From: Gemmatimonadales bacterium | Lineage (GTDB): Bacteria; Gemmatimonadota; Gemmatimonadetes; Gemmatimonadales; GWC2-71-9 | Assembly: GCA_036274515.1 (NCBI GenBank) | Contig: DASUFQ010000078.1 | Span: forward strand, 2,450 to 66,449 | Reading direction: 5' to 3' | Length of the DNA: 64,000 nucleotides | Part shown: one piece after another, positions 1 through 16,573 of the stretch | Layout of the letters: each line of letters begins with the position of its first letter | How positions within the stretch are numbered: the stretch's first letter is position 1 | Program-made: the position numbers and the translations under genes | Notes under the pieces: generated by a model | Seen by the model: the letters and a program-made list of their open reading frames with translations, nothing else | Databases searched by the model: none | What the model was told of the DNA's origin: nothing

Positions 1-1
1 G

Positions 2-118
2 CGGCAGACTGCGGTGGCGCACGGCGGCAGCATCGACGTGAAGGAGACGCCGGGGGGAGGCGCTACCTTCACGGTGACCCTCGCGATCGGTGCACCAGGC
101 CCGAGGACCGAGGACTGA
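2..118 (+). CDS. sensor histidine kinase, C-terminal fragment (5' end outside window)
   Basis: Frame 2 reads ...AHGGSIDVKETPGGGATFTVTLAIGAPGPRTED*, typical of the end of an HATPase_c domain. Stop TGA is at 116-118. A sigma-54 response regulator starts 60 nt downstream. Confidence 0.6.
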   Translation, partial: RQTAVAHGGSIDVKETPGGGATFTVTLAIGAPGPRTED

Positions 119-137
119 GGACTGGGGACCGAGGTCT
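103..137 (+). repeat. tandem heptamer array GAGGACC GAGGACT GAGGACT GGGGACC GAGGTCT (5 units)
   Basis: Read directly. It overlaps the last codons and the TGA stop of the kinase fragment. Confidence 0.9.
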
Positions 138-178
138 GGCCCTCCCCGCTTTCCCGCCTTGCACACCTATCTTTCCAA

Positions 179-1585
179 ATGCCCTCCATCCTCCTCATCG
201 ACGACGAGGCCAACATCCGCCGGATGCTCGGTGCGCTGCTGCGCGCCGAGGGGCACGAGGTGTCTGAGGCGCCAAACGGGAACGCCGCCCTGCTCCAGGT
301 GGACGAGACCGAGCCCGACGCGATCTTCCTCGACCTGATGATGCCGCCCGGCCCCGATGGGCTGGCCACCCTCCAGTCCCTGCGCGAGCGCGGGGTCTCG
401 GCGCCGGTCATCATGATGAGCGGCAAGGCGCAGCTGGCCGACGCGGTGCGGGCCGCCCGCCTCGGCGCCTTCCAGTTCCTCGAGAAGCCGCTCACCCCCG
501 AGTCGGTGCTCGTCACCCTGCAGGCGGCGCTCGACCTGTCGCGCACGCAGGCCGCCAACCGGGCGCTGCATGCGGCCCTCGGCCGCCGCGACGAGATGGT
601 GGGCGGCTCGGCCGCGCTCCGCCGGGTCCGCGAGCTGGTGGCGCAGGTGGCGCCGGGCGACACCCGGGTGCTGATAACCGGCGAGTCCGGCACCGGCAAG
701 GAACTGGTGGCCGCGGCGATTCATCGCGCCAGCGGACGGTCCGCCGGCCCCTTCGTGGCGGTCAATTCGGCGGCGATCCCGCGCGACCTGGTCGAATCCG
801 AAATGTTCGGCCACGAGCGGGGGGCCTTTACCGGCGCCAGCGAGCGGCGGATGGGCCGGTTCGAGCTCGCGGACCGCGGCACCCTCTTCCTCGACGAAGT
901 CGGCGACCTGAACCTCGAGGCGCAGGCCAAGCTCCTCCGCGTGCTCGAGGCAGGCGAGGTGCAGCGCGTCGGCGCCGAGCGCACCACCCGGGTCGACGTC
1001 CGCGTCATCGCCGCGACCAACACCCGGCTCGACGACGCGGTGGCGCGGGGACAGGTCCGCGAGGACCTCTTCTTCCGGCTGAATGTCTTCCCGATCCACC
1101 TGCCGCCGCTCCGCGAGCGGCTCGAGGACCTGCCGGCGCTGGTGCGTCACTTTGCGAGCCGGCTCCGGCCGCAGGCGCCGGTCGCGTTCACGCCGGCCGC
1201 GATCGCCGCCATGGCAGCGTATCCGTGGCCGGGCAACGTGCGGGAGCTGGCCAATGTGGTGGAGCGGCTGACGATCCTCTCGGACGGCGAGGTCGGCGCG
1301 GAAGCCGTCCACCAGGTGGTGCCGGCGGCGGGTGCGCGAATGGCGCGGCCCTCGCTGTCCGACCCTGGTCGTCCTCACCCCCTGTCCCCCTCTCCGGGAA
1401 CCGGAGAGGGGGGACGGAGGGAGGTGTCGCTCTCGTTGACGGAATCCCTGGAGACCCACGAGCGCGCGCTGATCCAGGCGGCGCTCGCCGAGGCGGGAGG
1501 CACGGTGGCGGAGGCCGCGCGCATCCTGCAGACCGACCGGGCGAACCTCTACCGGCGGATGAGGCGGCTGGGGTTGGGGGAGTAG
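179..1585 (+). CDS. sigma-54-dependent response regulator (NtrC family: receiver + AAA+ + Fis-type HTH)
   Basis: Receiver N-terminus (ILLIDDE...DLMMP), Walker A GESGTGKE, GAFTGA loop, C-terminal HTH (AEAARILQTDRANLYRRMRRLG). Confidence 0.95.
   Translation: MPSILLIDDEANIRRMLGALLRAEGHEVSEAPNGNAALLQVDETEPDAIFLDLMMPPGPDGLATLQSLRERGVSAPVIMMSGKAQLADAVRAARLGAFQFLEKPLTPESVLVTLQAALDLSRTQAANRALHAALGRRDEMVGGSAALRRVRELVAQVAPGDTRVLITGESGTGKELVAAAIHRASGRSAGPFVAVNSAAIPRDLVESEMFGHERGAFTGASERRMGRFELADRGTLFLDEVGDLNLEAQAKLLRVLEAGEVQRVGAERTTRVDVRVIAATNTRLDDAVARGQVREDLFFRLNVFPIHLPPLRERLEDLPALVRHFASRLRPQAPVAFTPAAIAAMAAYPWPGNVRELANVVERLTILSDGEVGAEAVHQVVPAAGARMARPSLSDPGRPHPLSPSPGTGEGGRREVSLSLTESLETHERALIQAALAEAGGTVAEAARILQTDRANLYRRMRRLGLGE
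1381..1421 (+). repeat. in-frame palindromic element (12-bp perfect stem CCCCCTCTCCGG / CCGGAGAGGGGG, 3-nt loop)
   Basis: Stem 1386-1397 pairs with 1401-1412. It encodes SPSPGTGEGG in the linker before the HTH. The arms are the same as in the hairpin inside tgt. Confidence 0.7.
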
Positions 1586-1594
1586 GGGCGCGGG

Positions 1595-1674
1595 CAGACG
1601 GCCAGACGGCCAGACGGTCAGACGGCCAGACGGTCAGACGGCCAGACGGCCAGACGGCCAGACGGCCAGACGGG
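1595..1674 (+). repeat. octanucleotide tandem repeat (CAGACGGY) x10
   Basis: Ten contiguous 8-bp units read directly (7 x CAGACGGC, 2 x CAGACGGT, 1 x CAGACGGG). Intergenic: 9 nt after the regulator stop and 193 nt before the OMP ATG. Confidence 0.95.
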
Positions 1675-1866
1675 CAGGAAATTAGTTCCCACGTTCGTCC
1701 TCTCCGCTTGGTGGAAAGGGGAACAGGGGGACAGGGGGAGAGGTGGAAACGGCGGAGGGGGAGAGGTGAAGACGGCGACGGGGAATGGCGAAGCCGGGAA
1801 GTGGGACAGGGCGGAAGGTCAACGATGGCGCGGAGGAGCGCGAGTGAGTCTGAGATTGGAGACCGC

Positions 1867-3606
1867 ATGAAGCAGCCCGCCTGGCACCTGCTCGCCCTGT
1901 TGTGCGCGCTCGCCGCGCCGGTCCACGCGCAGGACAGCGTGATGGTGATCGACCCCGACGCCCCCTTCGCGGACAGCACCACGCCCGGCGGATTGCCCGC
2001 GGCGGTCGTCCAGCAGCTCATCCGCACCTGGAATGATTCGGGCACCACCCGGTTCAACGGCCATGTCACGATCGCCGCCGGCACCCGGCTCCAGGGCCCC
2101 GTGGCCCTCTTCCGCGGAACGCTCCGGGTCGGCGGGGTCGTCGAGGGGCCGGTCACCGTCATCAACGGGAACCTGGTCCTCCTGCCCGGCGGGCGGGTGA
2201 CCGGTCCCGTGCTGGTGGTGGGGGGGCGCCTGGTGAAACAGGAGGGGAGCGTCCTCGAGGGCGGCGAGAAGGTGTACTGGGACCTGGCGCCGGTGGCCCG
2301 CCTCAACGACGGCACCCTCGCCCCGCAGAAGACGCCGGACCTCGAGAACCTCGGCCGGGCCGAGGCGACGTTCGGCGTCGGGAAGATCCGCACCACCCTG
2401 CACGCCTCGACCGGCGGTACCTACGACCGCGTCGAAGGCTTCCCGCTCGAGGCGGGACCGGCCTTCGAGTGGCGGGCCACGGAACGCGACCGCGTCAAGC
2501 TGGACCTGACGGGCATCGTCCGCACGACGACCGACCACAGCGACTCGCGGAGCGACTTCGGGTACCGGGCCAAGCTGGAATGGCGGCGGTTCGGGGAGAT
2601 CGGCTACGGATTCGGGGCCCGCGCCTGGAGCGTGATCGACGTCATCCCGGACCAGACACTCTCCCGCGCGGAGTCGGGGTGGTCGTCGATCCTGCTGCAG
2701 GACGACCAGTACGACTACTACGACGCCCAGGGGGTCGGCATCTACGGGTTCGTGGTGCCCGCGCGCCAGTTCCGGATCGACCTCTCCTACGACGGCGAGG
2801 AGCAGTCGTCGGTGCCCGCGAACGATCCCTGGTCGCTCTTCGTGAACGAGAGCCGGTGGCGACCCAACCCGCTGATCGACGATGGCGAATACTCCCTCGC
2901 GCGGGGATCGGTGACTCTCGACACCCGCGACAGCGACCGGCAGCCCGCCATCGGCTGGTATGCCAAGTTAAGCGCGGAATTCGGGGCCAGCGACGACGTC
3001 GCCCCGGCGGCGCTCCCGCCGGGCGTCCGAAACCCGATCGCGACCGACGGCTCCTACAACTACGCACTGCTGACCACCGACGTCCGGCGGTACTTCCGGC
3101 TCTCCCCGGACGACCGGCTGAGCGGGCGCGCCTACTTCTCCGGCTGGATGGGCGGCGACCCGCTGCCGGTGCAGCGGCGGCTCTCCCTCGGCGGCCCCTC
3201 GATCCTTCCGGGCGACGCCTTCCGCCAGATCAACTGCACCCCGCCCGGCGAGTCCAACCCCTCGCAGGCGAGCCTGTGCGACCGGACGCTCTTCTTCCAG
3301 GTGGAATTCCGGCACCGGCTGAACCTCGGATGGCACTACACCCTGAGCGAAGGGAAGGAAGGCTCGGCGGGCCGCATCATCGGCATCCAGACCGCCGATC
3401 TCGTGTTCCTCTCCGACCTCGGCACCGCCTGGCTGAGCGGGACCGGCCCGGGCCATGTGCCGAACAACCGTCTCCCCTCGCTCGACACCTGGACCGCCGA
3501 CATCGGCGCCGGCATCGACTTCGGGTTCATCGGCGCCTACCTGGCCAAGTCGGTGACCGACGACGGCCCGGTGCGCCTCTCCATCCGACTGCAGCGCCGC
3601 TTCTAG
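1867..3606 (+). CDS. outer-membrane beta-barrel protein (Omp85/surface-antigen-like) with N-terminal bactofilin-like beta-helical repeat region
   Basis: Signal peptide MKQPAWHLLALLCALAAPVHA-QD. G/V-rich repeats follow (GHVTIAAGTRLQGPVALFRGTLRVGGVVEGPVTVINGNLVLLPGGRVTGPVLVVGG), then alternating beta-strand sequence ending in ...IRLQRRF (C-terminal Phe). The start is taken at the internal ATG of the 1225-3606 ORF. Confidence 0.8.
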   Translation: MKQPAWHLLALLCALAAPVHAQDSVMVIDPDAPFADSTTPGGLPAAVVQQLIRTWNDSGTTRFNGHVTIAAGTRLQGPVALFRGTLRVGGVVEGPVTVINGNLVLLPGGRVTGPVLVVGGRLVKQEGSVLEGGEKVYWDLAPVARLNDGTLAPQKTPDLENLGRAEATFGVGKIRTTLHASTGGTYDRVEGFPLEAGPAFEWRATERDRVKLDLTGIVRTTTDHSDSRSDFGYRAKLEWRRFGEIGYGFGARAWSVIDVIPDQTLSRAESGWSSILLQDDQYDYYDAQGVGIYGFVVPARQFRIDLSYDGEEQSSVPANDPWSLFVNESRWRPNPLIDDGEYSLARGSVTLDTRDSDRQPAIGWYAKLSAEFGASDDVAPAALPPGVRNPIATDGSYNYALLTTDVRRYFRLSPDDRLSGRAYFSGWMGGDPLPVQRRLSLGGPSILPGDAFRQINCTPPGESNPSQASLCDRTLFFQVEFRHRLNLGWHYTLSEGKEGSAGRIIGIQTADLVFLSDLGTAWLSGTGPGHVPNNRLPSLDTWTADIGAGIDFGFIGAYLAKSVTDDGPVRLSIRLQRRF

Positions 3607-4266
3607 ATGCGCCTGGCGGCTCACCTCCTGCTGTTCGCGGCCCTGGCGCTCCCGGGTGCCGGCGTGCTGACCGCGCAGGGCGCCGCCGGCGTCAGGCTGG
3701 CGGTGGCCCTGACGCCGGACGCGGGGCGCCCGAACGGGAAGCTCCCCGAGGCGCGGGTCAGCGGCCTGCTGGAGGACGATCGCTGGACTTCCGCGCTGCT
3801 CAGCGGCCTCCCGCTCCGGCTCCACTACCGCCTCGAGCTCTGGCGCTCACGCTCCTCGTGGTTCGACGCGGCGGTCCGGTCGGTCGAATGGGACGTCGTC
3901 GTGCGGCGGGAACCGCTGCTCGACCAGTATACGGTCACCACCGTGCTCCTGGGCCGCACCCGCCAGCAGCGCTACCCCGACCTCGGCGCGCTCGGCAGCG
4001 CCCTCGGCGTGGCCTACCGGATCGCGGTGCGCCCGAGCGACCCGGGGGAGTACTACTACGTGGCGACGCTGTCGGTGTCGACGCTCTCCGACGCCGACCT
4101 CGACGAGATGGACCGGGTCATGCGGGGGGAGACCGGCGCCGCCACCGACGACAACGGCAACGTGGGCGACGCGGTCGGCCGGACCGCGCGCCGGATGCTG
4201 TTGCGCGTGGCGGGGCTGCCGATCATGCGGGTGGATGGGAGGAGCGAATCGTTCAGGATCAAATAG
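3607..4266 (+). CDS. secreted hypothetical protein
   Basis: The ATG immediately follows the OMP stop. Signal peptide MRLAAHLLLFAALALPGAGVLTAQ. GC3-rich codons. No family recognised with confidence. Confidence 0.6.
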   Translation: MRLAAHLLLFAALALPGAGVLTAQGAAGVRLAVALTPDAGRPNGKLPEARVSGLLEDDRWTSALLSGLPLRLHYRLELWRSRSSWFDAAVRSVEWDVVVRREPLLDQYTVTTVLLGRTRQQRYPDLGALGSALGVAYRIAVRPSDPGEYYYVATLSVSTLSDADLDEMDRVMRGETGAATDDNGNVGDAVGRTARRMLLRVAGLPIMRVDGRSESFRIK

Positions 4267-4338
4267 GACTGAGGACTGAGGGCGATCCGAAGGTCGTCGA
4301 ACCGGATCTCAGTCCCCAGTCCTCAGTCCTCGTTCCTA
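4264..4338. repeat. inverted pair of heptamer arrays forming a long hairpin between convergent genes
   Basis: Left arm TAGGACT GAGGACT GAGGGCG (4264-4284). Right arm is the reverse complement of TAGGAAC GAGGACT GAGGACT GGGGACT GAG (4308-4338). 14 bp pair perfectly (4265-4278 with 4317-4330), plus an inner GATCCG/CGGATC. Both flanking stop codons lie inside the arms. Confidence 0.85.
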
Positions 4339-4887
4339 GTGTGTCCGCAGCGCGTGCAGCGCGGCCTCTCCGTAGAACAGCCGGATGTACTTGGCCTGTG
4401 TCCGGCTCAGGCTCCGCACCGCCCACGACAGGTGGACGAAGTGGGGCTCGAGGGGCGGGTGCAGCGGCACCATCCCGCACTCCTCGGGGAGGCGGTTGCC
4501 CTTGCGGGTGTTGCAGGTGCTGCAGGCCGTCACCACGTTGGTCCACGCATTCCCGCCGCCGCGCGAGATCGGCACCAGGTGGTCGCGCGTGAGGCACTCG
4601 CGCGGACGCAGCTCCGGCTGGCTCCGGCTGCAGAACTGGCAGCGGTAGCCATCGCGGGCAAAGAGGAAAGTGTTGGTGACGTGGCGGCGGAAGCGGCGGG
4701 GGACGTGCACGAACTTGACGAGTCGGATGATGGCTGGCCGTGGGATGGCCAGCCGCTCACTTCGCATGTACTCCGGTCCGTCGGCCTCGACGATTTCGGC
4801 CTTGCCCTCGATGACCAGCCGCAGCGCCCGGCGGACGGGCACCATGGTCAGCGGCTCGAAAGAGGCGTTCAAGGCAAGGCAGCGCAT
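4336..4887 (-). CDS. HNH endonuclease family protein
   Basis: 183 aa from the internal ATG (MRCLALNASFEPL...). HNH/zinc motif CQFC...DHLVPISRGG...N...CSTCNTRKGN. The upstream 539-aa extension in the track is GC-shadow. Confidence 0.85.
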   Translation of the reverse strand: MRCLALNASFEPLTMVPVRRALRLVIEGKAEIVEADGPEYMRSERLAIPRPAIIRLVKFVHVPRRFRRHVTNTFLFARDGYRCQFCSRSQPELRPRECLTRDHLVPISRGGGNAWTNVVTACSTCNTRKGNRLPEECGMVPLHPPLEPHFVHLSWAVRSLSRTQAKYIRLFYGEAALHALRTH

Positions 4888-4967
4888 GCCGTGATTCCCG
4901 GGTGAGGTGGTTGGAAGAATCGTAACGGCCGGTGCTGGCGGCAGCAAGGGAGGGCCGGCCCGCGGCG

Positions 4968-6206
4968 CTACCGTCGGTGGACGGTCCGTCCCCCGAGGAT
5001 TGTCTCCACCACATCCGCCGGCCCGCTGGCCAGGATCGCCTCGAGAACGGCGTCGGCTGCCCGCGCCCCCGCGATCCCGACGACCGCCGCATCTCCCCAC
5101 ATCCCCGCGCGCAATGACCCGACCTCCCGCTCGAGCCCGAGCGCGGCGGCGGCCCCCGTCGTGGCCAGCGCCAACGCCGCGTCCGCCGCCAGCCCGGCCA
5201 GCGCCCGGGCGGCGCGCGCCTCGGCAAGCAGATCGAGCGCCCCGACGCTCACCTCCGAATCGGTGCCCACCCCCACCCGCAGCCCCGCGCGGAGGAAGGC
5301 TCCGATCGGCGCCGTGCCATGCCCGTGCCTGCGGTTGGAGAGCGGACAGTGCGCCACAGCGCAGCGATGGAGCCCAAGCAGCGCGATGTCCCGCGCCCCC
5401 GCCTGCACGACGTGGATGGCGAGGGTGGAGGGCCCCAGCACCCCGTGCTGCGCCAGCCACTCGACCGGGGACCGCCCCGGCAGCGAGGGGACCGGGATCC
5501 CGCGCGCCGCCCATGCCTCGGCAAAGGGCCCCGCGGCACCCTGCAGCAGTTCCGATTCGGCCGTGGATTCCGCGAGGTGCACCGCGATGGGGAAACCGCC
5601 GTCGGCGGCGAAGACGGCGATCGCCGCGTAGAGCGGCCCGCTGACGGTATAGGGCGCGTGCGGCGACACGCCGAGCCGCACGCGAGCGAAGGCAAACTGC
5701 CGGAGGGAGGCCATCCGCGCCCGGAAACCCGCCATGCTCTCGTCCACCTGGTCCGGATGGGGCCCGAACACCTCGTGGTAGGCGATGCCGCTCCCACCCG
5801 CCCCCGCCATCGCCTCGATGACCGCGCCGGAATCGCCGGTGTCCGCCACGGTCGTGACCCCGGCGGCATGGCAGGCGGCCAGGCCGGCACGCGCCGCGTC
5901 GAGGAAGTCGGCCTGCGAGCGCTCCGCCTTGAGTGCCCGCACCCGCCGAATCCATGACGGGAAGTCGTCCTCGGGGGCCTTGCCGGCCAGGCCGGTGAGC
6001 TCGAGATGGGTGTGGGTGTTGACCAGGCCGGGAATGAGGGCCGCGCCGGGGAACCGCTCGCGCTCGACCCCGTGAGGCGCGGCGACGGCGGCGCGGGGGC
6101 CGACCTCCCGGATGCGTCCGTCCGCGCCGATCAGCACCGCGCCGTCATGGATCGGCGGGCCATCCATGGGGACGACCCAGTCGGCGCTCAGGAGGCGAAC
6201 GGGCAC
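4968..6206 (-). CDS. amidohydrolase-family metal-dependent deaminase/chlorohydrolase (MtaD/aminofutalosine-deaminase-like)
   Basis: N-terminal LIPGLVNTHTHLEL metal-binding motif. Later H...H and D motifs (AVHLAES, GTDS). Confidence 0.85.
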   Translation of the reverse strand: MPVRLLSADWVVPMDGPPIHDGAVLIGADGRIREVGPRAAVAAPHGVERERFPGAALIPGLVNTHTHLELTGLAGKAPEDDFPSWIRRVRALKAERSQADFLDAARAGLAACHAAGVTTVADTGDSGAVIEAMAGAGGSGIAYHEVFGPHPDQVDESMAGFRARMASLRQFAFARVRLGVSPHAPYTVSGPLYAAIAVFAADGGFPIAVHLAESTAESELLQGAAGPFAEAWAARGIPVPSLPGRSPVEWLAQHGVLGPSTLAIHVVQAGARDIALLGLHRCAVAHCPLSNRRHGHGTAPIGAFLRAGLRVGVGTDSEVSVGALDLLAEARAARALAGLAADAALALATTGAAAALGLEREVGSLRAGMWGDAAVVGIAGARAADAVLEAILASGPADVVETILGGRTVHRR

Positions 6207-6207
6207 C

Positions 6208-8403
6208 TCACGGCTCGGTGGGCGCGGGCTCGATCGGGGCGGCGTCGACGGCGGTCGACTGCCCGAAGGGAAGGTGCACGGGGCAGGCTTCGTTCGGCTC
6301 GCTGCCGGGCAGGAACCACTCCATGCCGCGCACCGCCGTCGGGCAGTATGGCGAGGCCCGGAACCCGGTGGTGCGGTCGATTTCGACGCTGACCAGGCCG
6401 TCGGGCTGCGGCCACCCGCCGGGGGTGCTCCGCCGCTCGTAGACCTCCTCCATCATCTGCCGCCAGGCCGGCGCGGCGAGGATGCCGCCCTGCGCGTTCG
6501 GCTTGATCTTGTCGGGGTTGTCCAGGCCGAACCAGAAGCCGGCGACGAGGTCGGAGGTGTAGCCGATGAACCAGACGTCGAAGCCATCGTTGGTCGTGCC
6601 GGTCTTGCCGCCGATCGGGAAGTTGAGTCCCGCGGCGGCCCGGGTGCCGGTGCCGCGCCGCACCACGTCCTGCAGCGCGCCGTTCATCATCCAGGCCAGG
6701 GGCGGATCCATGACCGGATCGAGCCTCGGCTTGGGCTGCCAGAGGATGTTCCCCTGCCGGTCCTCCACCCGGAGGATGCCCATTGGCGTGGCCCGCTCCC
6801 CCTGGTTGGCGAAGGCGGTGTAGGCCGCGATCATCTCGAGGGGCTTCACCAGCGCCGACCCGAGGTGGATCGACGGCACGGCGGGAATCGGCGACGCGAC
6901 CAGCCCGAACCGGGTCCCCTCCGCGATCACCGCCTCCTCGCCGATTTCCATCCCGAGCTTGATGGCGATGATGTTGACCGACTGGTAGAGCGCCTGGCGG
7001 AGCGGCATCGGACCCCGGAAGGTATTGTCGTAGTTCTGCGGCTCCCAGGGCGGTTGCGACCCCGGCATCTCGACGGTGATCGGTTCGTCCACCATGACGG
7101 TCGTGAGCGGCACCCCCGCCCGCACACCGGCGGTGTAGACGATCGGCTTGAAGGTCGAGCCCGGCTGGCGGAGCGCCTGCGTGGCGCGATTGAACTTGCT
7201 GTCCTCGAAGTCCCGGCCGCCCACCATGGCGAGGATGTACCCGGTCTTCGCCTCGAGGGTGACGGTGAGCCCCTGCAGGTAGGGGCTCACGGTGTGCTCC
7301 GACTCGTCGTCGCGCTCGGCCTTCTTCTCGATGTAGTCGGCGTAGGTCTGGTGGCGGTACGGGCCGTAGGTGCCCGCCTCGATGGCACTCAGCTGCGCCT
7401 CCAGCGCCCGCTCGGCGGACTGCTGGATGTCGAGGTCGAGGGTGGTGTAGATCCGGAGGCCGTCGGTGTAGAGCCGCGGGCCGAAGCGGGCGTCCAGTTG
7501 CTGCCGGATGTACTCCACAAAATATTCCGCCACGCCGCTGAAGTCGTCGCGCGACGAGAGCAGCAGCGGGTAGGCCTTCCACCGCTGCGCCTCCTGCTCG
7601 GTGATGGTCCCCTGGGCCGCGAGGAGCCCGATGACCAGGTTGCGGCGCTGGAGGGCCCGCGCCGGATGCCGCCGCGGGTTGTAGCGGCTGGGCGACTTCG
7701 GGATGGCGGCCAGCGACGCCGCCTCGGCGACGTTGAGGTCCCGCGAGGACTTGCCGAAGTACCGCTGGGAGGCCGCCTCGACCCCGAAGGCGCGGTTGCC
7801 GAGGTCGATCTGGTTGAGGTACAGCTCGAGGATCTTGTCCTTGGAGTAGCGGGCCTCGATCTCGGTGGCGACCCGGGCCTCGCGGATCTTCCGGTCGAGC
7901 GACCGCTCCCGGCGGTTGAGGTCCTCCGGGAAAAGGTTGCGGGCCAGCTGCATCGTGATGGTCGAGAACCCCTCGCTCACGCCGCCGGCCAGGATGTTGG
8001 CCTTGACCGCGCCGAAGAACCGGATCCAGTCGATGCCGTGGTGCTGGTAGAACCGCTTGTCCTCGGTGGCCAGGAAGGCGGCGACCAGCGCCGGGGACAT
8101 CTCCTGGAGCGAGAGCACGGTGCGCCGCTCCTTGCCGAGGTCGGTGATGAGGCGGCCGTCGGCGGCGTACACCTTGGAGGCCTGGTCGGGATCGTAGGTG
8201 TCGAGCCCCTCGATGGAGGGGCACCGATTCCCCGAGCAGGCGCGCATCCAGGCGCCGGCGAGCAGGGCGGCGCCGAAGACGGTGACGCCGAGGACCGACA
8301 GGAGGGCCGTCCGGCGAATCTTCGGGGTGCGCCACCAGCGGAGAAGGGTGTCCCGGAGGGTGATCAGGAGGGCACGGAGCATTGAGGGAAAGTAATCGTC
8401 CAC
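6208..8403 (-). CDS. mrcA: penicillin-binding protein 1A (bifunctional transglycosylase/transpeptidase)
   Basis: GT51 motifs ([17 protein letters not shown]), transpeptidase SxxK (GSTFK) and KTGT. The start may be the second Met (8382). Confidence 0.95.
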
Positions 8404-8418
8404 CTAGCTTTCTCCACC

Positions 8419-9687
8419 ATGCCCACACTCCTGGACACCCTGGCCGCCCGCGGGTTGCTGCACGACGCCACCCCGGGGCTCGCCGCGCGGCTCGGGGGCG
8501 GTCCCGTCACCGCCTACGTGGGGTTCGACCCGACCGCCGACTCGCTGCACGTGGGGAGCCTGCTCCCGGTCATCGGGCTCGCCTGGCTGCAGCGCTTCGG
8601 CGGGCGGCCGATTGCCCTGGTCGGTGCCGGCACCGGGATGGTGGGCGATCCGAGCGGCAAGCGTGACGAGCGGCCGGTGCTCGCCGTGGAGGTGATCGAC
8701 CGGAACGCGGCGGCGCTCAAGGCGCAGCTGTCACGCTTCCTCGACTTCGAGGGGCCGGCCGCCGCCCGGATCATGAACAACGCCGACTGGCTCCGCGGCC
8801 TCGGGCTGATGGAGTTCCTGCGCGACACCGGCAAGCATTTCACCGTCAACTACATGCTGCAGAAGGACTCGGTGCAGAGCCGGATGGAAACCGGCATCAG
8901 CTTCACCGAGTTCAGCTACATGCTGGTGCAGGCCTACGATTTCTGGCACCTCTTCCGCACGGCGGGCTGCGAGCTGCAGATGGGCGGCAGCGACCAGTGG
9001 GGGAACATCACCGCCGGCATCGAGCTGATCGGGCGCCGGGAGCAGGGGAGCGCGCACGGCCTCGTCCTCCCGCTCCTCACCACCGCCACCGGCGCCAAGT
9101 TCGGCAAGAGCGAGGACGGCAACGTCTGGCTCGACCCCGCCCGCACCAGCCCCTACAAGTTCTTCCAGTTCTGGCTCAACACCGACGATCGCGACGTCGG
9201 TCGCCTGCTCAACTTCTTCACCTTCCTCCCCGACCGGGACATCGCCGAGGTGCTCGCCGAGCAGGCCACGGACCCGAGCCGCCGTGCGGCGCAGCGCCGG
9301 CTGGCCGAGGACATCACCACGCGGGTGCACGGGGCGGAGACGACCGCGCGCGTCGTGCGCGCCAGCGCCATCCTCTTCGGCGGCACCGACCTGCGCGGCG
9401 CGGACGCCGGGGTTTTCGAGGTCCTGGCCGGGGAAATGCCGACCAGCGCCCTCCCCGCCGGCCTCCTCGACACCGGCCTCTCCCTCGTGGACGCGCTGGT
9501 GACGGCCGGGCTCGCAGCGTCGAAGAGCGACGCGCGCCGGGGCATCCAGGGCAAGGGCTTTGCCGTCAACGGAGAAAAGACCGATGACGTGGAGCGCGCC
9601 CTCGGCCCCGGGGACCTGCTGGCGGGCGGGTACGTGATGCTGCAGAAAGGGCGGAAGAACTACGCGTTACTGAGGACTGAGGACTGA
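8419..9687 (+). CDS. tyrS: tyrosine--tRNA ligase
   Basis: Class-I signature HVGSL, KFGKS (KMSKS variant), C-terminal S4-like domain. The last codons LRTED* are encoded by a heptamer array. Confidence 0.95.
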
Positions 9688-10832
9688 GGGCTGAGCTTCT
9701 CCAGCATCCCCACCACCCGCTCCATCTCGTCCATCGTATTGAACAGGTGCGGACTCAGCCGGATCGCCCCCTCCCGCACCCCCGCCACCACCCCCTGCGC
9801 GCGGAGCTGCTTGTAGGCCCTGGCCGGCTCCGGCACCGCCACGCAGACGATCCCCGAGCCCCTGGCACCCACCGGCGAGGAGATCCGCACCCCCCGCCGC
9901 ACCGCCCAGTCGAGGATCGGCGCCTGCAGCCCGGCGATGTGCCGCGCGATCGCGGGGATGCCGATGTCGAGGAGCATGCCGACCGAGGTGTTGAATCCCG
10001 CGAAGTCCTGGTACGGTAGGGTGATCATCTCGAAGCGCCGGGCGTCGCTGCGGAGCCGCGGGTTGTAGTCCGTCAAGCGACCGAAGTCGTCGGTCCCCTC
10101 GAACGCCATCCACCCGGTCACGGCAGGGTCGACGACGGTCATTAATTCCTTCCGGACGTAGACGAACCCGCTCCCCCACGGCGAGAGCAGCCACTTCTGC
10201 CCCCCGCAGGCCAGGAGGTCCACCGGCGTGGCGGCGAGGTCCACCGGCACCGCCCCCAGCCCCTGGATCGCGTCCACCACGAGGTAGGTGTCGGTGGCGC
10301 GCGCCCGCTTCGACAGCCGGTCGAGGTCCACCCGGTAGCCGTTGCTGAACTGGACCAGGGACACGGCGACCACCCGCACCCGCGGATCGGCCATCCGTTC
10401 GAGGAGCGCCGCCTCGTCCGGCCACCCCTCCGCCGTGACCGGCGCCAGCTCGAGCGCGATGCCCCGTTCCGCCAGGCGCATCCAGGGGTAGACATTGGCC
10501 GGGAATTCCCGGTCGCTCGCGACGACCACGTCGCCCCGGTCGAGCGGCAGGCCCTGGGCCGCGAGATTGAGCCCGTAGCTGGTGTTGACCGTGAGCGCGA
10601 TCTCCTCGGGCGTGGCGTTCAGCAGCCGCGCCGCGAGGGCGCGCGCCTGGGTGAACTCGGCGAAGAGCTCGGGGTCACTCGTCCTGAAGGGCGCGGCGCG
10701 CAGGGTGCCGAAGTGATCGATGCGGCGGCGAGTGCGCTCCGGCAGCGGCCCGATCGAGGCGCTGTTGAGGTAGATCGCCTCGTCCAGCGCGGGAAACTCC
10801 TCGCGTCGAAGGGCGGCGAAGTCCGTGCTCAT
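9660..10832 (-). CDS. class-V aminotransferase / cysteine-desulfurase-like PLP enzyme
   Basis: Fold-type I class V pattern with the PLP lysine in ACGGQKWL. 390 aa. Confidence 0.9.
9666..9699 (+). repeat. tandem heptamer array (GTTACT) GAGGACT GAGGACT GAGGGCT GAGCTTC
   Basis: Read directly. It lies in the 28-nt overlap of convergent tyrS and the aminotransferase gene. Confidence 0.9.
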
Positions 10833-10842
10833 CGGGGGCGCC

Positions 10843-11676
10843 TCACCGGTCGGTCCGCAGCTTGGGGTCGTAGGCCTCGCGCAGCGTGTCGCCCACGAGG
10901 TTGAAGCCGAGGACCGCCAGCCCGATCGCGATGCCCGGCGCGAACGACACCCACGGGGCCACGCGGAGCAGGTCCCGCCCGTCGGCCACCATCGAGCCCC
11001 AGCTCGGTGTCGGCGGCTGGGCCCCGAGGCCCACGAACGACAGCGCCGCCTCGGCCATGATGGCGCCCGCCATGCCGAGGGTCGCGGCCACGATCACCTG
11101 GCCCCGGACGTTGGGGAGGAGGTGCCGGAAGAGGATCCGCCGGTCGGGGGCGCCCAGCGCCTGGGCGGCCGTCACGTACTCGGCGCTCTTGAGCACCAGC
11201 ACCTGGCCGCGCACCAGCCGCGCCATCGCCGCCCAGCCCACCACCCCGATCACGACGAAGACGACCGGAAGCGACGGGTTGACCGCCGCGGCCACCGCGA
11301 TAAGGAGGAGGAGGGTCGGAAAGGCGAGGGTCACGTCGGCCAGGCGCATGATGAGGGCGTCCACCCGCCGGCCGTAGTAGCCCGACACCAGCCCGAGGGT
11401 GACGCCGAGTGCGCTGGCCACCAGCTGGCTGATGATGCCGACGGCGAGGGATATCCGCGCGCCGTAGATGACGCGGGTGAGCACGTCCCTGCCCTGCGTG
11501 TCGGTGCCGAGCCAGTGGGACAGGCTTGGTGGGAGGAGGTAGGACTCCGCCGGATCGCCGACGTAGGGGCCGCCCGGGGCGACCACCGACGCCAGCGCCG
11601 CCGCGCCGACCACCAGCGCCACGAGCAGCAGGCCCAGCTGGAAGAAGCGGTCGGTGCGGAGCCGGGAGAGGAGCAT
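10843..11676 (-). CDS. peptide/nickel ABC transporter permease (DppC/OppC type)
   Basis: BPD_transp_1 pattern, N-terminal ...SHWLGTDTQGRDVLTRVIYGARISL typical of DppC/OppC. No cognate partner genes are adjacent. Confidence 0.9.
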   Translation of the reverse strand: MLLSRLRTDRFFQLGLLLVALVVGAAALASVVAPGGPYVGDPAESYLLPPSLSHWLGTDTQGRDVLTRVIYGARISLAVGIISQLVASALGVTLGLVSGYYGRRVDALIMRLADVTLAFPTLLLLIAVAAAVNPSLPVVFVVIGVVGWAAMARLVRGQVLVLKSAEYVTAAQALGAPDRRILFRHLLPNVRGQVIVAATLGMAGAIMAEAALSFVGLGAQPPTPSWGSMVADGRDLLRVAPWVSFAPGIAIGLAVLGFNLVGDTLREAYDPKLRTDR

Positions 11677-11687
11677 ATTGGAAGATA

Positions 11688-11717
11688 GCTCAGTCCTCAG
11701 TCCCCAGTCCTCGTTAC
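11688..11717 (-). repeat. tandem heptamer array (minus strand reads CGAGGACT GGGGACT GAGGACT GAGC)
   Basis: Read directly. It sits in the 50-bp gap between the divergent permease and patatin genes. Confidence 0.9.
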
Positions 11718-11726
11718 CTTTATTTC

Positions 11727-12866
11727 ATGACTTCCCCCCTGAACTTCAGCCTGGTCCTGGGCGGCGGCGGGCTGAAGGGACTGGCCCACATCGGCGCGCT
11801 GCAGGCGCTGGAGGAGGCCGGCCTCCGGCCGAGCGGCGTCGTCGGGTCCAGCATCGGGTCGCTGATCGCCGCGGCGTGGGCCGCCGGCCGGTCGGTGGAC
11901 TTCATGCGGGAGCGGGCGCTCCGGCTCAAGCGGCGGGACGTCTTCCAGGTGGCCCACACCGACATGGCGTTCAAGCGGATGCAGTCGCCGGCCATCTACC
12001 GGACCGAGCCGCTGGACTCGCTGATCTACGAGCTCGTCGGGGACAAGACGTTCGACGAGCTGCAGTACCCCCTCATCGTCAACACCGTCGACATCAATTC
12101 CGGGATGCAGGTGCTCTGGGGGCTGCCGGGGCTCCGGTTCGTGCCCGTGGCCGACGCCGTCTTCGCCTCCTGCGCCCTTCCCGGGATCCTCCCCCCGCGC
12201 GAAATCGCCGGCCGGTGGTACGTCGACGGCGCGGTGGCCGACAACCTGCCGGTCAAGGCCGCCACCGTCTGCGGCCCCGGGCCGATCGTCGCGATCGACG
12301 TGAGCGCCTCGATGGCGGTGCGGACCGACGTCGAGAAGACCGGCTTCGCCACGACCTACGCCCGCGGGCTCGAGATCGTGATGCAGACGATGCTCGAGCG
12401 GACGCTCCGCCTCTGGCAGCGGCCGCCCCTCCTGCTGGTGCATCCGCGCGTCGAGGACTACCCGATGTTCGTCTTCGACCGGACGCAGGAGCTGATGGCG
12501 GAAGGGTACCGCGCCATGCGCCAGCTGATCCCGGAGCTCCTCCGCCTGGTGGCCGAGCCGGAGGACGGCATCTACCCGCGCACCCCGGTCCGGATCCACG
12601 TGGACCGGTCGCGCTGCATCGGCTGCGGCGCCTGCGCGCTGCGCGCGCCGGGGATCTTCGCGATGGATGACCTGGGAAAGGCGGAGGTGATCGCGGCGCG
12701 CCAGGCGTGGTCGCCGCTGGACGGGATCTACGTGCGAAACTGCCCCACCGCGGCCATCAGCGCCCGGCCGGTTACCGGCGAGTGGGGGGGCGACAAGCCG
12801 CTCCCGATCGCCGCCGAGGCCCCCGGCCCCCGGCCCGCCGACCCGCCCCCTCAGACGATGCGGTAG
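11727..12866 (+). CDS. patatin-like phospholipase fused to a C-terminal single-cluster ferredoxin domain
   Basis: Patatin motifs GGGGLKG, GSSIGS (GxSxG) and DGA(V). The C-terminus has CIGCGAC...NCP (CxxCxxC...CP). Start at the internal ATG (MTSPLNFSLVLGGGG). Confidence 0.85.
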   Translation: MTSPLNFSLVLGGGGLKGLAHIGALQALEEAGLRPSGVVGSSIGSLIAAAWAAGRSVDFMRERALRLKRRDVFQVAHTDMAFKRMQSPAIYRTEPLDSLIYELVGDKTFDELQYPLIVNTVDINSGMQVLWGLPGLRFVPVADAVFASCALPGILPPREIAGRWYVDGAVADNLPVKAATVCGPGPIVAIDVSASMAVRTDVEKTGFATTYARGLEIVMQTMLERTLRLWQRPPLLLVHPRVEDYPMFVFDRTQELMAEGYRAMRQLIPELLRLVAEPEDGIYPRTPVRIHVDRSRCIGCGACALRAPGIFAMDDLGKAEVIAARQAWSPLDGIYVRNCPTAAISARPVTGEWGGDKPLPIAAEAPGPRPADPPPQTMR

Positions 12867-13714
12867 TTCCGGAACTCGAAGAGCCGGACCCCCGTCGCCC
12901 GCTCGAGCAGGTCGGACAGGAAATACCTCACAAAAGCCGGCTTGAACCGCCACGGGCCGATCCGCCCGGCGGCGGCCGCCCGGCGCTCGGCAATCCACTC
13001 CCGCGCCGTCTCCGGGTGTTCGCCGGTGAAGGGGCGGAGTCCGGGAATCCATGGGATCAGCGGGCGGTTGGGGTCGGCGTCGCGCCAGGGATACATCGTC
13101 TTCCCCAGCTCCCGCTTGGCGTCGAGCGCCTCGGAGGGGCGGGCCCATCCGTAGTGGAACATCGTGGCCGTCGTGCGCCGGGCGCGGATCCGCCGGTTGG
13201 CCTCCCCGACCCGGAAGCCCTGCGCCCCCTGGTAGGGGTGGATGCCGAGCGCCGGATCGAGGCGCACCGCGCGCACCTCCCGCCGGTACCAGCGCCGGTT
13301 GCTCGCCACGGTGTCAAAGCCGCCGTAGAAGTGCAGGTAGTTGACCAGCAACCCCTCCACCTGGGGATTACCGTCGCTGGCCTGGATCGCCTCCGCCAGC
13401 GCGTTGGCGCTCTTCCCGTCGAGGACTTCGTCGCCCTGGATGTCGATGCCCCACGGGTGCCGGCAGGCGCGCATCGCGCGCAGGGTCTCGTCGCCCAGCA
13501 CGTAGTTGCGGCGGGAGGTGTCCCACACCGTCTCGAGGATCCGGATCTTCGGGTCCTTGATCGAGCGGATCAGCTCCATGGTGTCGTCATCCGACTTGCC
13601 GACATTGACGATGACTTCCTCGCACACCGGCAGGATCGACCGGATGCTCTCGACGACGGGGAAGTCGTACTTGAAGGCGTTGCGGATGATGGTAAAGCCG
13701 GAAATCGGTATCAC
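12851..13714 (-). CDS. glycosyltransferase family 2-like protein
   Basis: N-terminal IPISGFTIIRNAFKYDFPV...VIVNVGKSDDDT resembles GT2 (GT-A) folds. GTG start inferred at 13714. The track ORF extension upstream is GC-shadow. Confidence 0.7.
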   Translation of the reverse strand: MIPISGFTIIRNAFKYDFPVVESIRSILPVCEEVIVNVGKSDDDTMELIRSIKDPKIRILETVWDTSRRNYVLGDETLRAMRACRHPWGIDIQGDEVLDGKSANALAEAIQASDGNPQVEGLLVNYLHFYGGFDTVASNRRWYRREVRAVRLDPALGIHPYQGAQGFRVGEANRRIRARRTTATMFHYGWARPSEALDAKRELGKTMYPWRDADPNRPLIPWIPGLRPFTGEHPETAREWIAERRAAAAGRIGPWRFKPAFVRYFLSDLLERATGVRLFEFRNYRIV

Positions 13715-13782
13715 GGGCTGACCTGTCGGTTGCGATGGGTCGGAGGCGGCTTCGGGGATTCTGGGGCGGCGGCGCGCCGGCG

Positions 13783-14754
13783 TCAATGCGACCGGCGCAC
13801 CACCTCGAGCAGCGCGTGCATCCGGTGCATGTAGGTGTGCTCCCGCAGCACCCGGGCCCGGCCGGCGCTCGCCACCGCCTCGGCGGCGGACGGGTCCTGC
13901 AGCGCCGCCTCCACCAGGGCGCGCATCTCGTCCACCGAGCGGTACACCAGCAGTTCCTTCCGGTCCTCGAAGTGCTGTTCGAGGTCGGCGCGATAGTCCA
14001 CCACCTGCGGCACCCCGATCGCGGCCACCTCGAAGGTCCGCTGGTTGACGCCCCGCTCCACGACGGCGGGCTCGGCGTCCGCCGAGCGGTGGATGTTGAC
14101 CGCCACCGACGCGCCGGCGTAGGCGCGGACGAAGTTCTCGGTGTCGAGCTGTTCCCCCCGGCAGTAGTCCCGCAGCGATGTGCGTCTCCACCCCGGCCCC
14201 CACACCGCCAGCCCGAACTCCACCAGCTCGGCCAGCAGGCGCTCCCGGCGCGGCGTGGCCGTGCCGGCAAAGACGACGTTGGCCCGGTACTGGTCCCGCG
14301 ACCGCATCGGCTTGTAGACCGACGGGTCGGCCGCCAGCGGGAGGTAGTGCACCGGCTTCTCCAGCTGGCCGGCAAGCGCCTCCTGCACGTCGGTGCCCGA
14401 CGCGAACACCAGGTCGTAGGCGGGGAGGGCGTGCTGCACGATGGCGAGCCCGTGCAAATCGTCGGGGATCCAGTTGACCCAGGTGCCGGGGTGGGCGCGC
14501 CGCAGCGTGGTGACCGCCTGCGCGGAGAGCGCCTCCCCGCGGACCACCAGCACGACGTCGGGGGCGCCGACCTCGAGTTCGCGGTCGAGGCGACTCACCA
14601 GGTCCCCCCCGCGGAGCCGGCTCAGGAGGCCGGGCCGGGCGGACACGTCGAACCGGGTGACGGTCTGCCCGTGCCGCTCGAGGGCGCGCTCGCGCTGCGC
14701 GGAGTGGGCGTTCAGGGCGTCGTCGTACGCGGCGACCACCAGCACCCGCGTCAC
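13783..14754 (-). CDS. CgeB-family glycosyltransferase-like protein
   Basis: 323 aa. The C-terminal half (NIHR...GVNQRTFEVAAIGVPQVVD...LVYRSVDEMRALVEAAL) resembles the CgeB/Glyco_trans_1_2 family. Confidence 0.7.
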   Translation of the reverse strand: MTRVLVVAAYDDALNAHSAQRERALERHGQTVTRFDVSARPGLLSRLRGGDLVSRLDRELEVGAPDVVLVVRGEALSAQAVTTLRRAHPGTWVNWIPDDLHGLAIVQHALPAYDLVFASGTDVQEALAGQLEKPVHYLPLAADPSVYKPMRSRDQYRANVVFAGTATPRRERLLAELVEFGLAVWGPGWRRTSLRDYCRGEQLDTENFVRAYAGASVAVNIHRSADAEPAVVERGVNQRTFEVAAIGVPQVVDYRADLEQHFEDRKELLVYRSVDEMRALVEAALQDPSAAEAVASAGRARVLREHTYMHRMHALLEVVRRSH

Positions 14755-16571
14755 GCGGCCGGCACCGGGTCGCGGAACTGGAGGTCGTGGAGCCGGCGGT
14801 AGAGCCCGCCCCGCTCGATCAGCTCGGCGTGCCGGCCCCGCTCCACCACGCGCCCCGCCTCCAGCACCAGGATCTGGTCGGCGTGGCGCACGGTGGCCAG
14901 GCGGTGCGCGATGACCAGCACCGTCCGGTCCTTCATCAGCCGTTCGATCGCTTCCTGCACCAGTCGCTCCGATTCGGTGTCGAGCGCGCTCGTCGCCTCG
15001 TCGAGGATGAGGATCGGCGGGTCGCGCAGGAGCGCCCGCGCGATGCTGATCCGCTGGCGCTGCCCGCCGGAGAGCCGCGTGCCCCGCTCGCCGAGGACGG
15101 TATCATACCCGTCCGGCAGCCCGGCGACGAACTCCGCCGCGTTGGCCGCGGCGGCGGCCGCCTCCACCTGGGCACGGGTGGCGCCAGGGGACCCGAAGGC
15201 GATATTCGCCTCGACGGTGTCGTTGAGGAGGACGGTGTCCTGGCTCACCACGCCGAGGATGCCGCGGAGCGACCGGCGCTGGATGGTGCCGAGCGGCACG
15301 CCGTCGAGGAGGATGCGGCCGCCCACCGGCTCGTTGAACCGGGGGAGCAGGTCCACCAGCGTCGTCTTGCCGGCCCCCGACGGCCCGACGATGGCGAGCA
15401 CCTTCCCCTTCTCCAGGCGGAACGAGATGTCGGAGAGGACCGGGGTCTCCGTGCCGTACCGGAAGGAGACGTGGTCGAAGACGATGTCCCGCTCGAAGCG
15501 GGCCGGCACGTCGCCCGGCGCGTCGACGTCGGAGACCGGCTCGTCCAGGAGCGCGTACACCCGCTCGGCGCTGGCCATCGCCACCGCCATGCTCGCGGGG
15601 TACTGGGAGATCGACTTGATGGGGGAGAGGAGCTGCAGCGACGCCACGAGGAAGGCGATGGCCGCCTCGGGGGTGAGCGGGACCCCGCCCACCAGCGCCG
15701 GCTGCGTGGCGGCGGCGATGATCAGGACGATGAGGAGCCCGCCGAAGATCTCGCTCATCGGGCCGGTGAGCGAGGAGTAGCGCTGGGTCCGCCGCACCTT
15801 GTCCCGGTAGTTGCTGAGCTGGCCCACCAGCTTCTGGAGCTGGCGCTCCTCCTCGCCGTAGGCCCGGATCAGCTTCACCGCGCCGACCTGCTCCGTCAGC
15901 GTGGAGGTGATGGCGGCGCGGTCGTGGGTGCGGGCCCGCGAGTGGCGCCGGAGCCGGACCAGCACGAACCGGAGCCCGAAGACGAGGAGCGGCGCCGCGG
16001 TCAGGGTCAGGAGCATCAGCCGGCCGCTGATCTGGCTCATCAACACCAGCACCACGGCGATCTTCACGACGCTCTGGAAGAGCTTCATCAGCGCGGCCGT
16101 CACCACTTCCTTCACCTGGTCGACCTCGGTCGTGATCGAGGCGAGGAGCTGGCCCTGCCGGGTGCGCTGGAAGAAGCCGAGGTCGAGCTTGAGGAGGTGC
16201 TCGAAAATCTGGGCGCGGAGGTCGCGCACCAGCCCCTCCTGCACCGCGACCTGCAGTTGCGCCGTGCTGTACGCCATCAGGTTGCGCAGCACCAGGCCCA
16301 GCACCAGCACGCCGAGGAGCCGGGCCACCGCCACGCTCGTCGGCACGCCGAGGATCAGCGGGTTGAGCAGCCACTCGGTGAAGCGGGTCAGCGCCGCCGA
16401 CCCGGAGGCGCCCAGCTGCCCGCTGGTGCCGAAGAGGAGCCGGAGGAGCGGGATGAGCACCACGACGGTGGTGCCGTCGAGCACGGACGCGAGGAACGAC
16501 GTCACCATGCCCAGGATGAACTGGGGGCGGTAGGGGCGCACCTGGCGAAGGAGGCGGAGCTCCGTCTGCAC
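14751..16571 (-). CDS. ABC exporter, fused permease/ATPase (MsbA-like lipid/glycan flippase)
   Basis: Six-TM N-terminal half, Walker A GPSGAGKTT, signature LSGGQRQRISIARALL, Walker B ILILDEATSALD. Confidence 0.9.
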   Translation of the reverse strand: MQTELRLLRQVRPYRPQFILGMVTSFLASVLDGTTVVVLIPLLRLLFGTSGQLGASGSAALTRFTEWLLNPLILGVPTSVAVARLLGVLVLGLVLRNLMAYSTAQLQVAVQEGLVRDLRAQIFEHLLKLDLGFFQRTRQGQLLASITTEVDQVKEVVTAALMKLFQSVVKIAVVLVLMSQISGRLMLLTLTAAPLLVFGLRFVLVRLRRHSRARTHDRAAITSTLTEQVGAVKLIRAYGEEERQLQKLVGQLSNYRDKVRRTQRYSSLTGPMSEIFGGLLIVLIIAAATQPALVGGVPLTPEAAIAFLVASLQLLSPIKSISQYPASMAVAMASAERVYALLDEPVSDVDAPGDVPARFERDIVFDHVSFRYGTETPVLSDISFRLEKGKVLAIVGPSGAGKTTLVDLLPRFNEPVGGRILLDGVPLGTIQRRSLRGILGVVSQDTVLLNDTVEANIAFGSPGATRAQVEAAAAAANAAEFVAGLPDGYDTVLGERGTRLSGGQRQRISIARALLRDPPILILDEATSALDTESERLVQEAIERLMKDRTVLVIAHRLATVRHADQILVLEAGRVVERGRHAELIERGGLYRRLHDLQFRDPVPAA

Positions 16572-16573
16572 CG

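Follow-up and report, generated by a model that had tools for sequence, protein, structure and literature searches.

What are the short tandem repeats that sit on gene ends in a GC-rich bacterial genome, and what keeps them there? The question is raised by a 64-kb stretch of DNA (hereafter, the window) from a metagenome-assembled genome (MAG) of a Gemmatimonadales bacterium with ~72% GC, the TyrRS of which matches an NCBI Gemmatimonadales entry at 100% identity. In the window, four gene junctions carry five arrays of three to five head-to-tail copies of a 7-nt unit with the consensus GAGGACT (GGACTGA in the alternative register). The arrays are most likely tolerated at the ends of coding sequences because every unit carries TGA. 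We consider it probable that they are repeats maintained by slippage and tolerated in these positions, with oppositely oriented arrays pairing up as terminator-like hairpins.

A family of stop-bearing heptamer arrays

The tandem dimer GRGGACTGRGGACT occurs six times in the window, compared with 0.00 times in 100 dinucleotide-preserving shuffles, and all six copies fall within the five arrays. The first-pass annotation of this DNA had reported five (GAGGACT)3-5 arrays and no tandem copy in the remaining 52 kb, and both statements hold, except that its ranges for arrays 3, 4 and 5 were a few bases too wide. Nor is there a surplus of single units in those 52 kb: of the 19 GAGGACT heptamers in the window, 10 lie within arrays, and the nine singletons compare with a chance expectation of 8.9. 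Built of 3-5 units, the arrays fall under the definition of heptanucleotide simple-sequence repeats (SSRs; at least two units), a family to which we assign them with high confidence. GGGGACT-type units are a minority variant in arrays 1, 3 and 5 (GGGGACC in array 1).

Four of the five arrays supply or adjoin a stop codon in the sense orientation, as had been claimed, the stops being confirmed from the open reading frames (ORFs) and a gene caller. The TGA of the unit itself serves as the stop twice, in a histidine kinase and in TyrRS, both of which end in RTED*. As read from the sequence, TGA falls at offsets 4, 11 and 18 in a run of three sense units and so occurs in all three frames, and the complement, TCAGTCC, is stop-free in every frame. 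A sense array can therefore overwrite the last two to five codons of a gene, whereas an antisense array, having no stop, extends the protein instead.

Both outcomes can be seen when the window is compared with syntenic loci from metagenomes and genomes (TyrRS identity to the window: 80% for L001 and L002, 87% for L003 and L004, 85% for L005, and 86-89% for L311-L314). Array-encoded tails of the forms ...TED*, ...AED* and ...TAD* were found in five different proteins. TyrRS homologues are all 420-422 residues long and vary in their last 3-4 residues, and the TED tail of the window protein is array-encoded. The NtrC-like protein ends in LGLGE* in the window but in LGLGTED* in L004, where a four-unit array lies on the stop (GGGGAGTAG versus GGGGACTGA at the gene end); the patatin of L003 ends in PRAED* and the aminotransferase of L001 in GLRTAD*. 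Conversely, antisense read-through of array 4 makes the window aminotransferase ~10 residues longer than its counterparts in L003 and L004, and the tail-to-tail overlap of 28 nt between TyrRS (+) and the aminotransferase (-), at 9660-9687, exists because the aminotransferase reads this array in antisense.

Gene order at the locus (Table 1) was established from the ORFs of the window, Pfam labels on the gene calls of syntenic relatives and our own codon-usage gene caller, which was validated by reproducing the stop coordinates of the L001 gene calls. Synteny of the HNH gene is kept in relatives without arrays. Two further repetitive stretches were noted in the window: ~11 copies of the octamer CGGCCAGA (92% matches; 1591-1677), beginning 6 nt past the TAG stop of the NtrC-like gene, and a stretch rich in G and A (1713-1797), containing GGACAGGG repeats along with repeats of 23 nt, that fills the long spacer upstream of the Omp85-like start.

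Table 1. Heptamer arrays and genes in the array-bearing part of the window.
Feature	Position	Strand	Details
Array 1	103-137	+	GAGGACC GAGGACT GAGGACT GGGGACC GAGGTCT; five heptamers; TGA 116-118 inside; 42 nt upstream of the NtrC-like start at 179
Array 2	4264-4284	+	TAGGACT GAGGACT GAGGGCG; opens with the TAG that ends the DUF4390 gene; left hairpin arm
Array 3	4308-4331	-	GAGGACT GAGGACT GGGGACT GAG; 4 nt past the TAG of the HNH gene (4338-4336); right hairpin arm
Array 4	9669-9695	+	ACTGAGG x3, then GCTGAG; TGA of TyrRS (9685-9687) inside
Array 5	11689-11712	-	GAGGACT GGGGACT GAGGACT GAG; between divergent starts (permease ATG 11676, -; patatin ATG 11727, +), not a gene end
Convergent pair, arrays 2 and 3	4264-4338		between the converging ends of the DUF4390 and HNH genes; folds into a long hairpin whichever strand is transcribed
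Histidine kinase, C-terminus	to 118	+	TGA stop inside array 1; tail ...GAPGPRTED*
NtrC-like activator	179-1585	+	
Omp85-like protein	1867-3606 (start about 1867)	+	
DUF4390 protein	3607-4266	+	TAG 4264-4266 opens array 2
HNH protein	4336-4887	-	TAG 4338-4336
Amidohydrolase	4968-6206	-	
PBP1A	6208-8382 or 8403	-	
TyrRS	8419-9687	+	tail ...LRTED*
Class V aminotransferase	9660-10832	-	
ABC permease	10843-11676	-	
Patatin-ferredoxin protein	11727-12866	+	

Hairpins formed by paired arrays

Arrays 2 and 3 face each other, and the pair folds into a long hairpin of -43.9 kcal/mol (z -4.8) on the plus strand and of -45.8 kcal/mol (z -5.7) on the minus strand. The orthologous pair of L001 reaches -58.2 kcal/mol (z -9.4), and the hairpins of the three L001 pairs range from -54 to -58 kcal/mol; overall, pairs fold with -44 to -58 kcal/mol and z-scores of -4.8 to -9.4. 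Solo arrays, in contrast, have no palindromic structure and fold no better than shuffled sequences (z +0.6 to +1.4), the RNAs of array 1 (z +1.19) and array 5 being unstructured.

The pairs resemble intrinsic terminators in being GC-rich hairpins located directly past gene ends, often between convergent genes, but differ from them in their far longer stems (17-28 bp), which are made of tandem units, and in the lack, in this lineage, of a clear U-tract; solo arrays have no hairpin at all. A scan with the terminator consensus placed no terminator at any array, and positions 1-20000 of the window contain a single canonical hairpin-plus-T-tract terminator, not located at an array, versus 5.1 in shuffles. 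The tails following the window pair are moderately U-rich, and an A-run and a T-run border one pair on a contig of the Acidobacteriota (L061), in the manner of a bidirectional terminator. A covariance-model scan of positions 1-13000 against Rfam 15, with E-values up to 1, returned nothing at any array. With moderate to low confidence, we attribute a hairpin or terminator role to the pairs: they would be long hairpins that end or stabilize two converging transcripts in a genome nearly devoid of canonical terminators, and solo arrays may be half-remnants or seeds of such pairs.

Inverted repeats at gene ends bring to mind repetitive extragenic palindromes (REPs), bacterial interspersed mosaic elements (BIMEs) and MITEs (miniature inverted-repeat transposable elements), none of which, according to the first-pass annotation, the arrays match. 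This part of the claim stands. Like REPs and BIMEs, the arrays are short, abundant, intergenic, lineage-specific and situated at gene ends; however, a REP is one imperfect palindrome that has a conserved head and is linked to RAYT transposases, whereas the arrays are direct tandem heptamers, of which a single one is not palindromic, and identity with REP/BIME is rejected on the folding of the solo arrays. Identity with MITEs is rejected as well, as no sequence beyond a partial unit is common to the spacer of the window pair and those of the three pairs in L001. The arrays are not, on the other hand, outside all known descriptions, given that they fit the heptamer repeats of Xanthomonas and Nostoc (PMC4692102), discussed below.

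That the paired arrays are nonetheless small MITE-like or REP-like mobile elements, copied by a transposase to new junctions, appears extremely improbable. Such copying would account for the occurrence of one sequence family at many junctions and for the inverted-repeat architecture of the pairs, and relatives do bear other lineage-specific hairpin families at equivalent junctions. Yet the spacers between the arms are wholly different between pairs of one genome, neither a target-site duplication nor a conserved core was seen, and the arms change length in whole 7-nt steps. Furthermore, most arrays are solo (127 of the 163 arrays from the listed matches and related loci introduced below), and no transposase gene adjoins any array among the ORFs of the window.

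Distribution and placement rules across bacteria

When 185,579 species genomes were searched for GGACTGAGGACTGAGGACTG, at least 120 stretches came up, compared with a chance expectation of about one according to our own arithmetic. Among the matches listed, the hosts include Acidobacteriota, Chloroflexota, Cyanobacteria, Gemmatimonadota and several proteobacterial classes, as well as Desulfobacterota, Myxococcota, Planctomycetota, Nitrospirota and Bacteroidota, adding up to more than 10 phyla, and the GC content of the loci spans 0.31 to 0.73. Some loci display more complex arrangements. In a deltaproteobacterial MAG (L015, 2040-2270) and in Egbenema sp. (L120, 2680-2890), GGACTGA arrays are embedded in tandem repeats of ~61-68 bp, each consisting of an array and a conserved spacer, in three copies. 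A Syntrophobacteraceae contig (L116, 640-1100) holds adjacent arrays of GGACTGA, CACGAAT/CACGATT, GTGACGA and GTGAATC-type heptamers; some genomes thus host many heptamer families together.

Placement was analysed for 163 arrays of at least three units, compiled from the 120 matches listed, the window and its relatives, and all placement counts given here refer to this set. Unit numbers peak at 3-4, and only 17 of the 163 arrays lie inside a called gene. Close pairs comprise 36 arrays, and all 18 pairs are convergent, (GGACTGA)n...(TCAGTCC)n, with no case of the opposite order. Among the 14 pairs with two called neighbours, six separate convergent gene ends, seven are found at co-directional junctions and one between divergent starts; 13 of the 14 lie past at least one gene end. 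Sense arrays past a gene end begin at a median of 7 nt after the stop (10 nt or less in 48/84), with 26/84 overlapping it, whereas antisense arrays lie at a median of 80 nt from the gene end and none within 10 nt.

The first-pass annotation had further proposed strict placement at 3' ends in the orientation of the gene. Family-wide, the strict orientation fails: co-directional junctions hold 35 sense and 23 antisense arrays. What does hold is that arrays keep close to the 5'-side ORF (5' with respect to the G-rich strand), regardless of how that ORF is oriented. Indeed, 65 of the 80 solo intergenic arrays are nearer to this ORF (p = 1e-8), and the bias persists among arrays that supply no stop (47:15) and among those that have an opposite-strand gene start as their neighbour (17:6). 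There is no polar decay toward the 3' side of the array, the flanks being equally random beyond one unit, and a search for conserved flanks or an insertion target recovered only partial units (A before the array, G after it).

These rules have a precedent. Rehm et al. (2015) described dispersed heptamer repeats with the units GGGAATC in Xanthomonas and GGGGA(C/T)T in Nostoc PCC 7120, which comprise 2-26 units, mostly 2-5, and are about 90% intergenic; 70 of the 186 are in convergent pairs able to form stem-loops or long hairpins (PMC4692102). The repeats are closer to the 5' neighbouring ORF irrespective of its orientation and, if located on the coding strand, lie 0-50 bp from the stop or overlap it. 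They seldom occur between divergent genes and vary among relatives, both in presence and copy number and, at one junction, in length; no function was found for them (PMC4692102). Our arrays share the 7-nt unit, the predominance of 2-5 units, the many dispersed intergenic copies, the closeness to the 5'-side ORF, the overlap with stops, the convergent pairs, the under-representation at divergent junctions and the variation in length and sequence, and they include GGGGACT as a minority unit. They differ in the consensus GAGGACT, which has GG tracts only, in the TGA of every unit, which neither GGGAATC nor GGGGACT contains, and in the Gemmatimonadales host with its high GC content. The arrays therefore belong to the known class of dispersed G-rich bacterial heptamer repeats, to which they add a new unit and a new phylum; a literature search for tandem dimers of the GAGGACT unit retrieved no bacterial report. 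They do not belong to the quadruplex class of Rehm et al., defined by at least four consecutive tracts of at least three Gs: the arrays consist of GAGGACT units with scattered GGGGACT only, and the quadruplex property is not expected because their G-tracts are only two Gs long.

A cyanobacterial relative may be STRR1, one of the short tandemly repeated repetitive sequences reportedly described by Mazel et al. in 1990, which is said to have the unit (CCCCAGT)n. The rotated reverse complement of this unit, GGGGACT, is one substitution away from GAGGACT. The two families differ in the consensus unit and in phylum (heterocystous cyanobacteria versus Gemmatimonadales), and STRR arrays can be much longer; membership in STRR1 is rejected, GGGGACT being only a minority unit here and the host a member of the Gemmatimonadales. 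In PMC4692102, these cyanobacterial repeats are cited as heptanucleotides of Calothrix PCC 7601. Another comparison is offered by the TAACTGA direct repeats that MacGregor (2015) described in marine Beggiatoaceae, Cyanobacteria and Bacteroidetes (PMC4679880). These, too, are intergenic heptamers with an ACTGA core, a stop in every unit, 2-6 copies, a patchy spread across phyla and strain indels in 7-nt steps, but the Beggiatoa copies are mostly located just upstream of start codons in the forward orientation, whereas GAGGACT arrays are mostly on or just past stops.

Does this placement require anything beyond tolerance? The arrays might be neutral by-products of polymerase slippage, found wherever a 7-nt repeat is tolerated, namely in intergenic DNA and at the extreme ends of coding sequences, an alternative that we regard as possible, if on balance unlikely. 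Heptamers are reported to be the commonest long SSRs of bacteria and have been ascribed to slippage (Mrazek 2007, as cited in PMC4679880 and PMC4692102); the lack of an identified function for the Xanthomonas and Nostoc repeats, the absence of stop conservation within arrays and the loss or replacement of arrays in close relatives all agree with neutrality. Tolerance, however, predicts a spread across the whole spacer rather than a position at a median of 7 nt from the stop; it does not predict the 65:15 bias toward the 5' side, which persists without stop supply, and leaves unexplained both the uniform orientation of the pairs and the presence of one unit at many junctions.

Nor is the unit itself unique, a further point in favour of neutrality. 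In viral contigs, we counted stretches of heptamers of the same composition, with the target as a 20-mer. GGACTGA, with 34 stretches, is not uniquely favoured, as three other permutations bearing TGA or TCA are about as common or commoner (GTCAGGA, 38; GGTCAGA, 56; GCAGTGA, 38); a fourth, GCGATGA, yielded only five. The stop-free GGCAGAT, GGATGCA and GGAGACT were found in 6, 8 and 11 stretches, respectively. Four of the five TGA-bearing heptamers are thus 3-9 times commoner than the three stop-free ones of equal composition, which is only suggestive of stop-bearing heptamers being favoured, since a set of eight units does not suffice and ATG occurs in two of the three controls that are stop-free.

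Alternatively, the arrays could be platforms for a factor that binds single-stranded nucleic acids, or for a structure formed by them. The candidates are an RNA-binding protein with a 7-nt register, of the S1, cold-shock or CsrA type, as proposed for the TAACTGA repeats (PMC4679880, where candidate binding proteins are discussed); weak two-tetrad G-quadruplexes; and the antisense (UCAGUCC)n, C-rich and G-poor, which would load Rho and stop antisense or leader transcription. Solo arrays, being less structured than shuffles, would offer accessible single strands; each unit contains GGA and GAGG, and its complement, as read off the unit, has a C content of 43%, a G content of 14% and three YC dinucleotides. 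The placement is strand-polar and independent of the orientation of the neighbours, as in Rehm et al. (PMC4692102), and the unit is found in many phyla (at least 120 loci). Against this, other, unrelated heptamers are equally common, the 4-nt GAGG would be a weak Shine-Dalgarno match, and the G-tracts are two Gs long, compared with the tracts of 3-4 Gs shown to form quadruplexes (PMC4692102). Overall, we deem a binding platform very unlikely.

Turnover among relatives and the origin of the arrays

The history of the arrays can be followed at orthologous gene ends, where, as the first-pass annotation had suggested comparing, both presence and unit number vary across relatives at shared junctions. 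L001, consistently the most distant relative across ten proteins, carries convergent (GAGGACT)3-4 pairs at three of the junctions that bear arrays in the window, DUF4390|HNH, TyrRS|aminotransferase and permease|patatin, with unit numbers that differ from those of the window. Arrays 4 and 5 of the window look like surviving halves of pairs, because L001 has pairs at these junctions. The closer relatives have no arrays there and carry other repeats or hairpins instead. L003 has (GGGGAAGC)3 immediately past the TyrRS stop (11266-11300); L003 and L004 have inverted repeats with arms of the GGGACTT or GGGACTA type at junctions bearing GAGGACT arrays in the window or in L001; and L311 and L312 carry a single proto-unit, TAGGACT, on the TyrRS stop. 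Arrays also occur at other junctions in relatives, at the stop of the NtrC-like gene in L004 ((GAGGACT)4) and between the patatin and glycosyltransferase genes in L003 and L314.

Several further features of the relatives were recorded. The GGGACTT/GGGACTA inverted repeats, at 5785-5935, 14835-14935 and 16055-16160 in L004 and at 5785-5920 in L003, resemble the Nostoc unit GGGGA(C/T)T, and a second hairpin family in L003, with arms of CTTTGCG-type repeats, is located at kinase|NtrC (1640-1720) and NtrC|Omp85 (3185-3265). Together with the (GGGGAAGC)3 past the TyrRS stop of L003, this second family suggests that junction hairpins with repeat arms are particular to each lineage. At the NtrC-like stop, the (GAGGACT)4 of L004 takes the place of the (CGGCCAGA)11 of the window, a different short repeat in an equal gene-end position. 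The TyrRS|aminotransferase junction is a variable spot: a gene for a HerA/DUF87-type ATPase lies between the two genes in L004 (11278-12819), L005 (11323-12864) and L314 (1411-2961), whereas L003 has a 390-bp spacer without it. On the European Nucleotide Archive (ENA) contig L005 (770-9600), the kinase, NtrC-like, HNH/amidohydrolase and PBP1A genes are fragmented, which may reflect assembly indel errors or pseudogenes.

The comparison also bears on the regional clustering, which the first-pass annotation had emphasized. The arrays do all lie in the first 12 kb of the window, and, of the 56 junctions, a run of nine takes in all four that bear arrays (P ~0.011, scan statistic with simulation). 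This value overstates the clustering, however, because the rest of the window consists of tightly packed co-directional genes with little intergenic space: most of the remaining 52 kb is taken up by extended series of co-directional genes that abut one another and leave no space for an array, and the first 13 kb contain three of the seven convergent junctions of the window and two of its seven divergent ones. The confinement is therefore weak. Relatives have arrays at other junctions and, among the matches listed, other Gemmatimonadales contigs carry them too (L054, L069, L076, L081 and L097). Given that three of its members recur in L001, the cluster is more aptly viewed as a group of old hairpins at gene junctions.

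Two independent assemblies of one relative, L001 from JGI and L002 from Logan, agree at 99.95% identity across 5.5 kb and do not differ in their arrays, which disposes of the assembly artefact that the first-pass annotation had named as a concern. The same comparison, covering two samples of one species, revealed no difference in unit number, so that the arrays are not hypermutable on this time scale.

We favour the following scenario. Units would be gained and lost through replication slippage; arrays would colonize gene ends that already hold a proto-unit, such as the TAGGACT on the TyrRS stop of relatives or, at the end of the NtrC-like gene, the GGGGAGTAG of the window as compared with the GGGGACTGA of L004, and would persist there since a change in length cannot damage the protein. 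Several observations weigh against slippage and terminator-like pairs as the full account. The constancy of unit number between L001 and L002 is one of them, and variant units within arrays provide no signal of stop conservation, the stop being kept in 52 of 90, compared with about 62% expected. In this GC-rich lineage, no clear U-tract follows the paired hairpins, and both one L001 pair and array 5 of the window are flanked by divergent gene starts, a setting in which a terminator would serve little purpose. Slippage alone leaves unexplained why one unit occurs at many unlinked junctions of one genome and why arrays hug the 5'-side ORF even when it is on the opposite strand (17/23); no model that we tried explains the spread of the unit to many junctions or this strand-independent preference.

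A broader, though improbable, proposition is that TGA-bearing heptamer arrays (GGACTGA, TAACTGA and their relatives) are not slippage debris but a pan-bacterial, strand-polar punctuation element of gene boundaries, which would be copied to ORF borders and would combine three-frame stops, bidirectional paired hairpins and Rho-loading C-rich tracts on antisense or leader transcripts. It is kept because of the at least 120 loci in more than 10 phyla, the 18/18 orientation of the close pairs among the 163 arrays, the 5'-side rule for either orientation of the neighbour and the 3-9-fold excess of four of the five TGA-bearing units in viral contigs.

Reports of dispersed heptamer repeats in bacteria date back to 1990, with no function yet accepted for them, and GAGGACT adds a unit and a phylum. 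The published placement rules, namely closeness to the 5'-side ORF, overlap with stops and convergent pairing, apply well outside Xanthomonas and Nostoc. The arrays also matter for annotation and for the evolution of proteins, in that they recast the last residues of unrelated proteins to ...TED* or, in antisense, lengthen proteins. If the pairs are indeed working terminators of GC-rich lineages that lack canonical ones, their recognition would aid the prediction of operons and transcript 3' ends.

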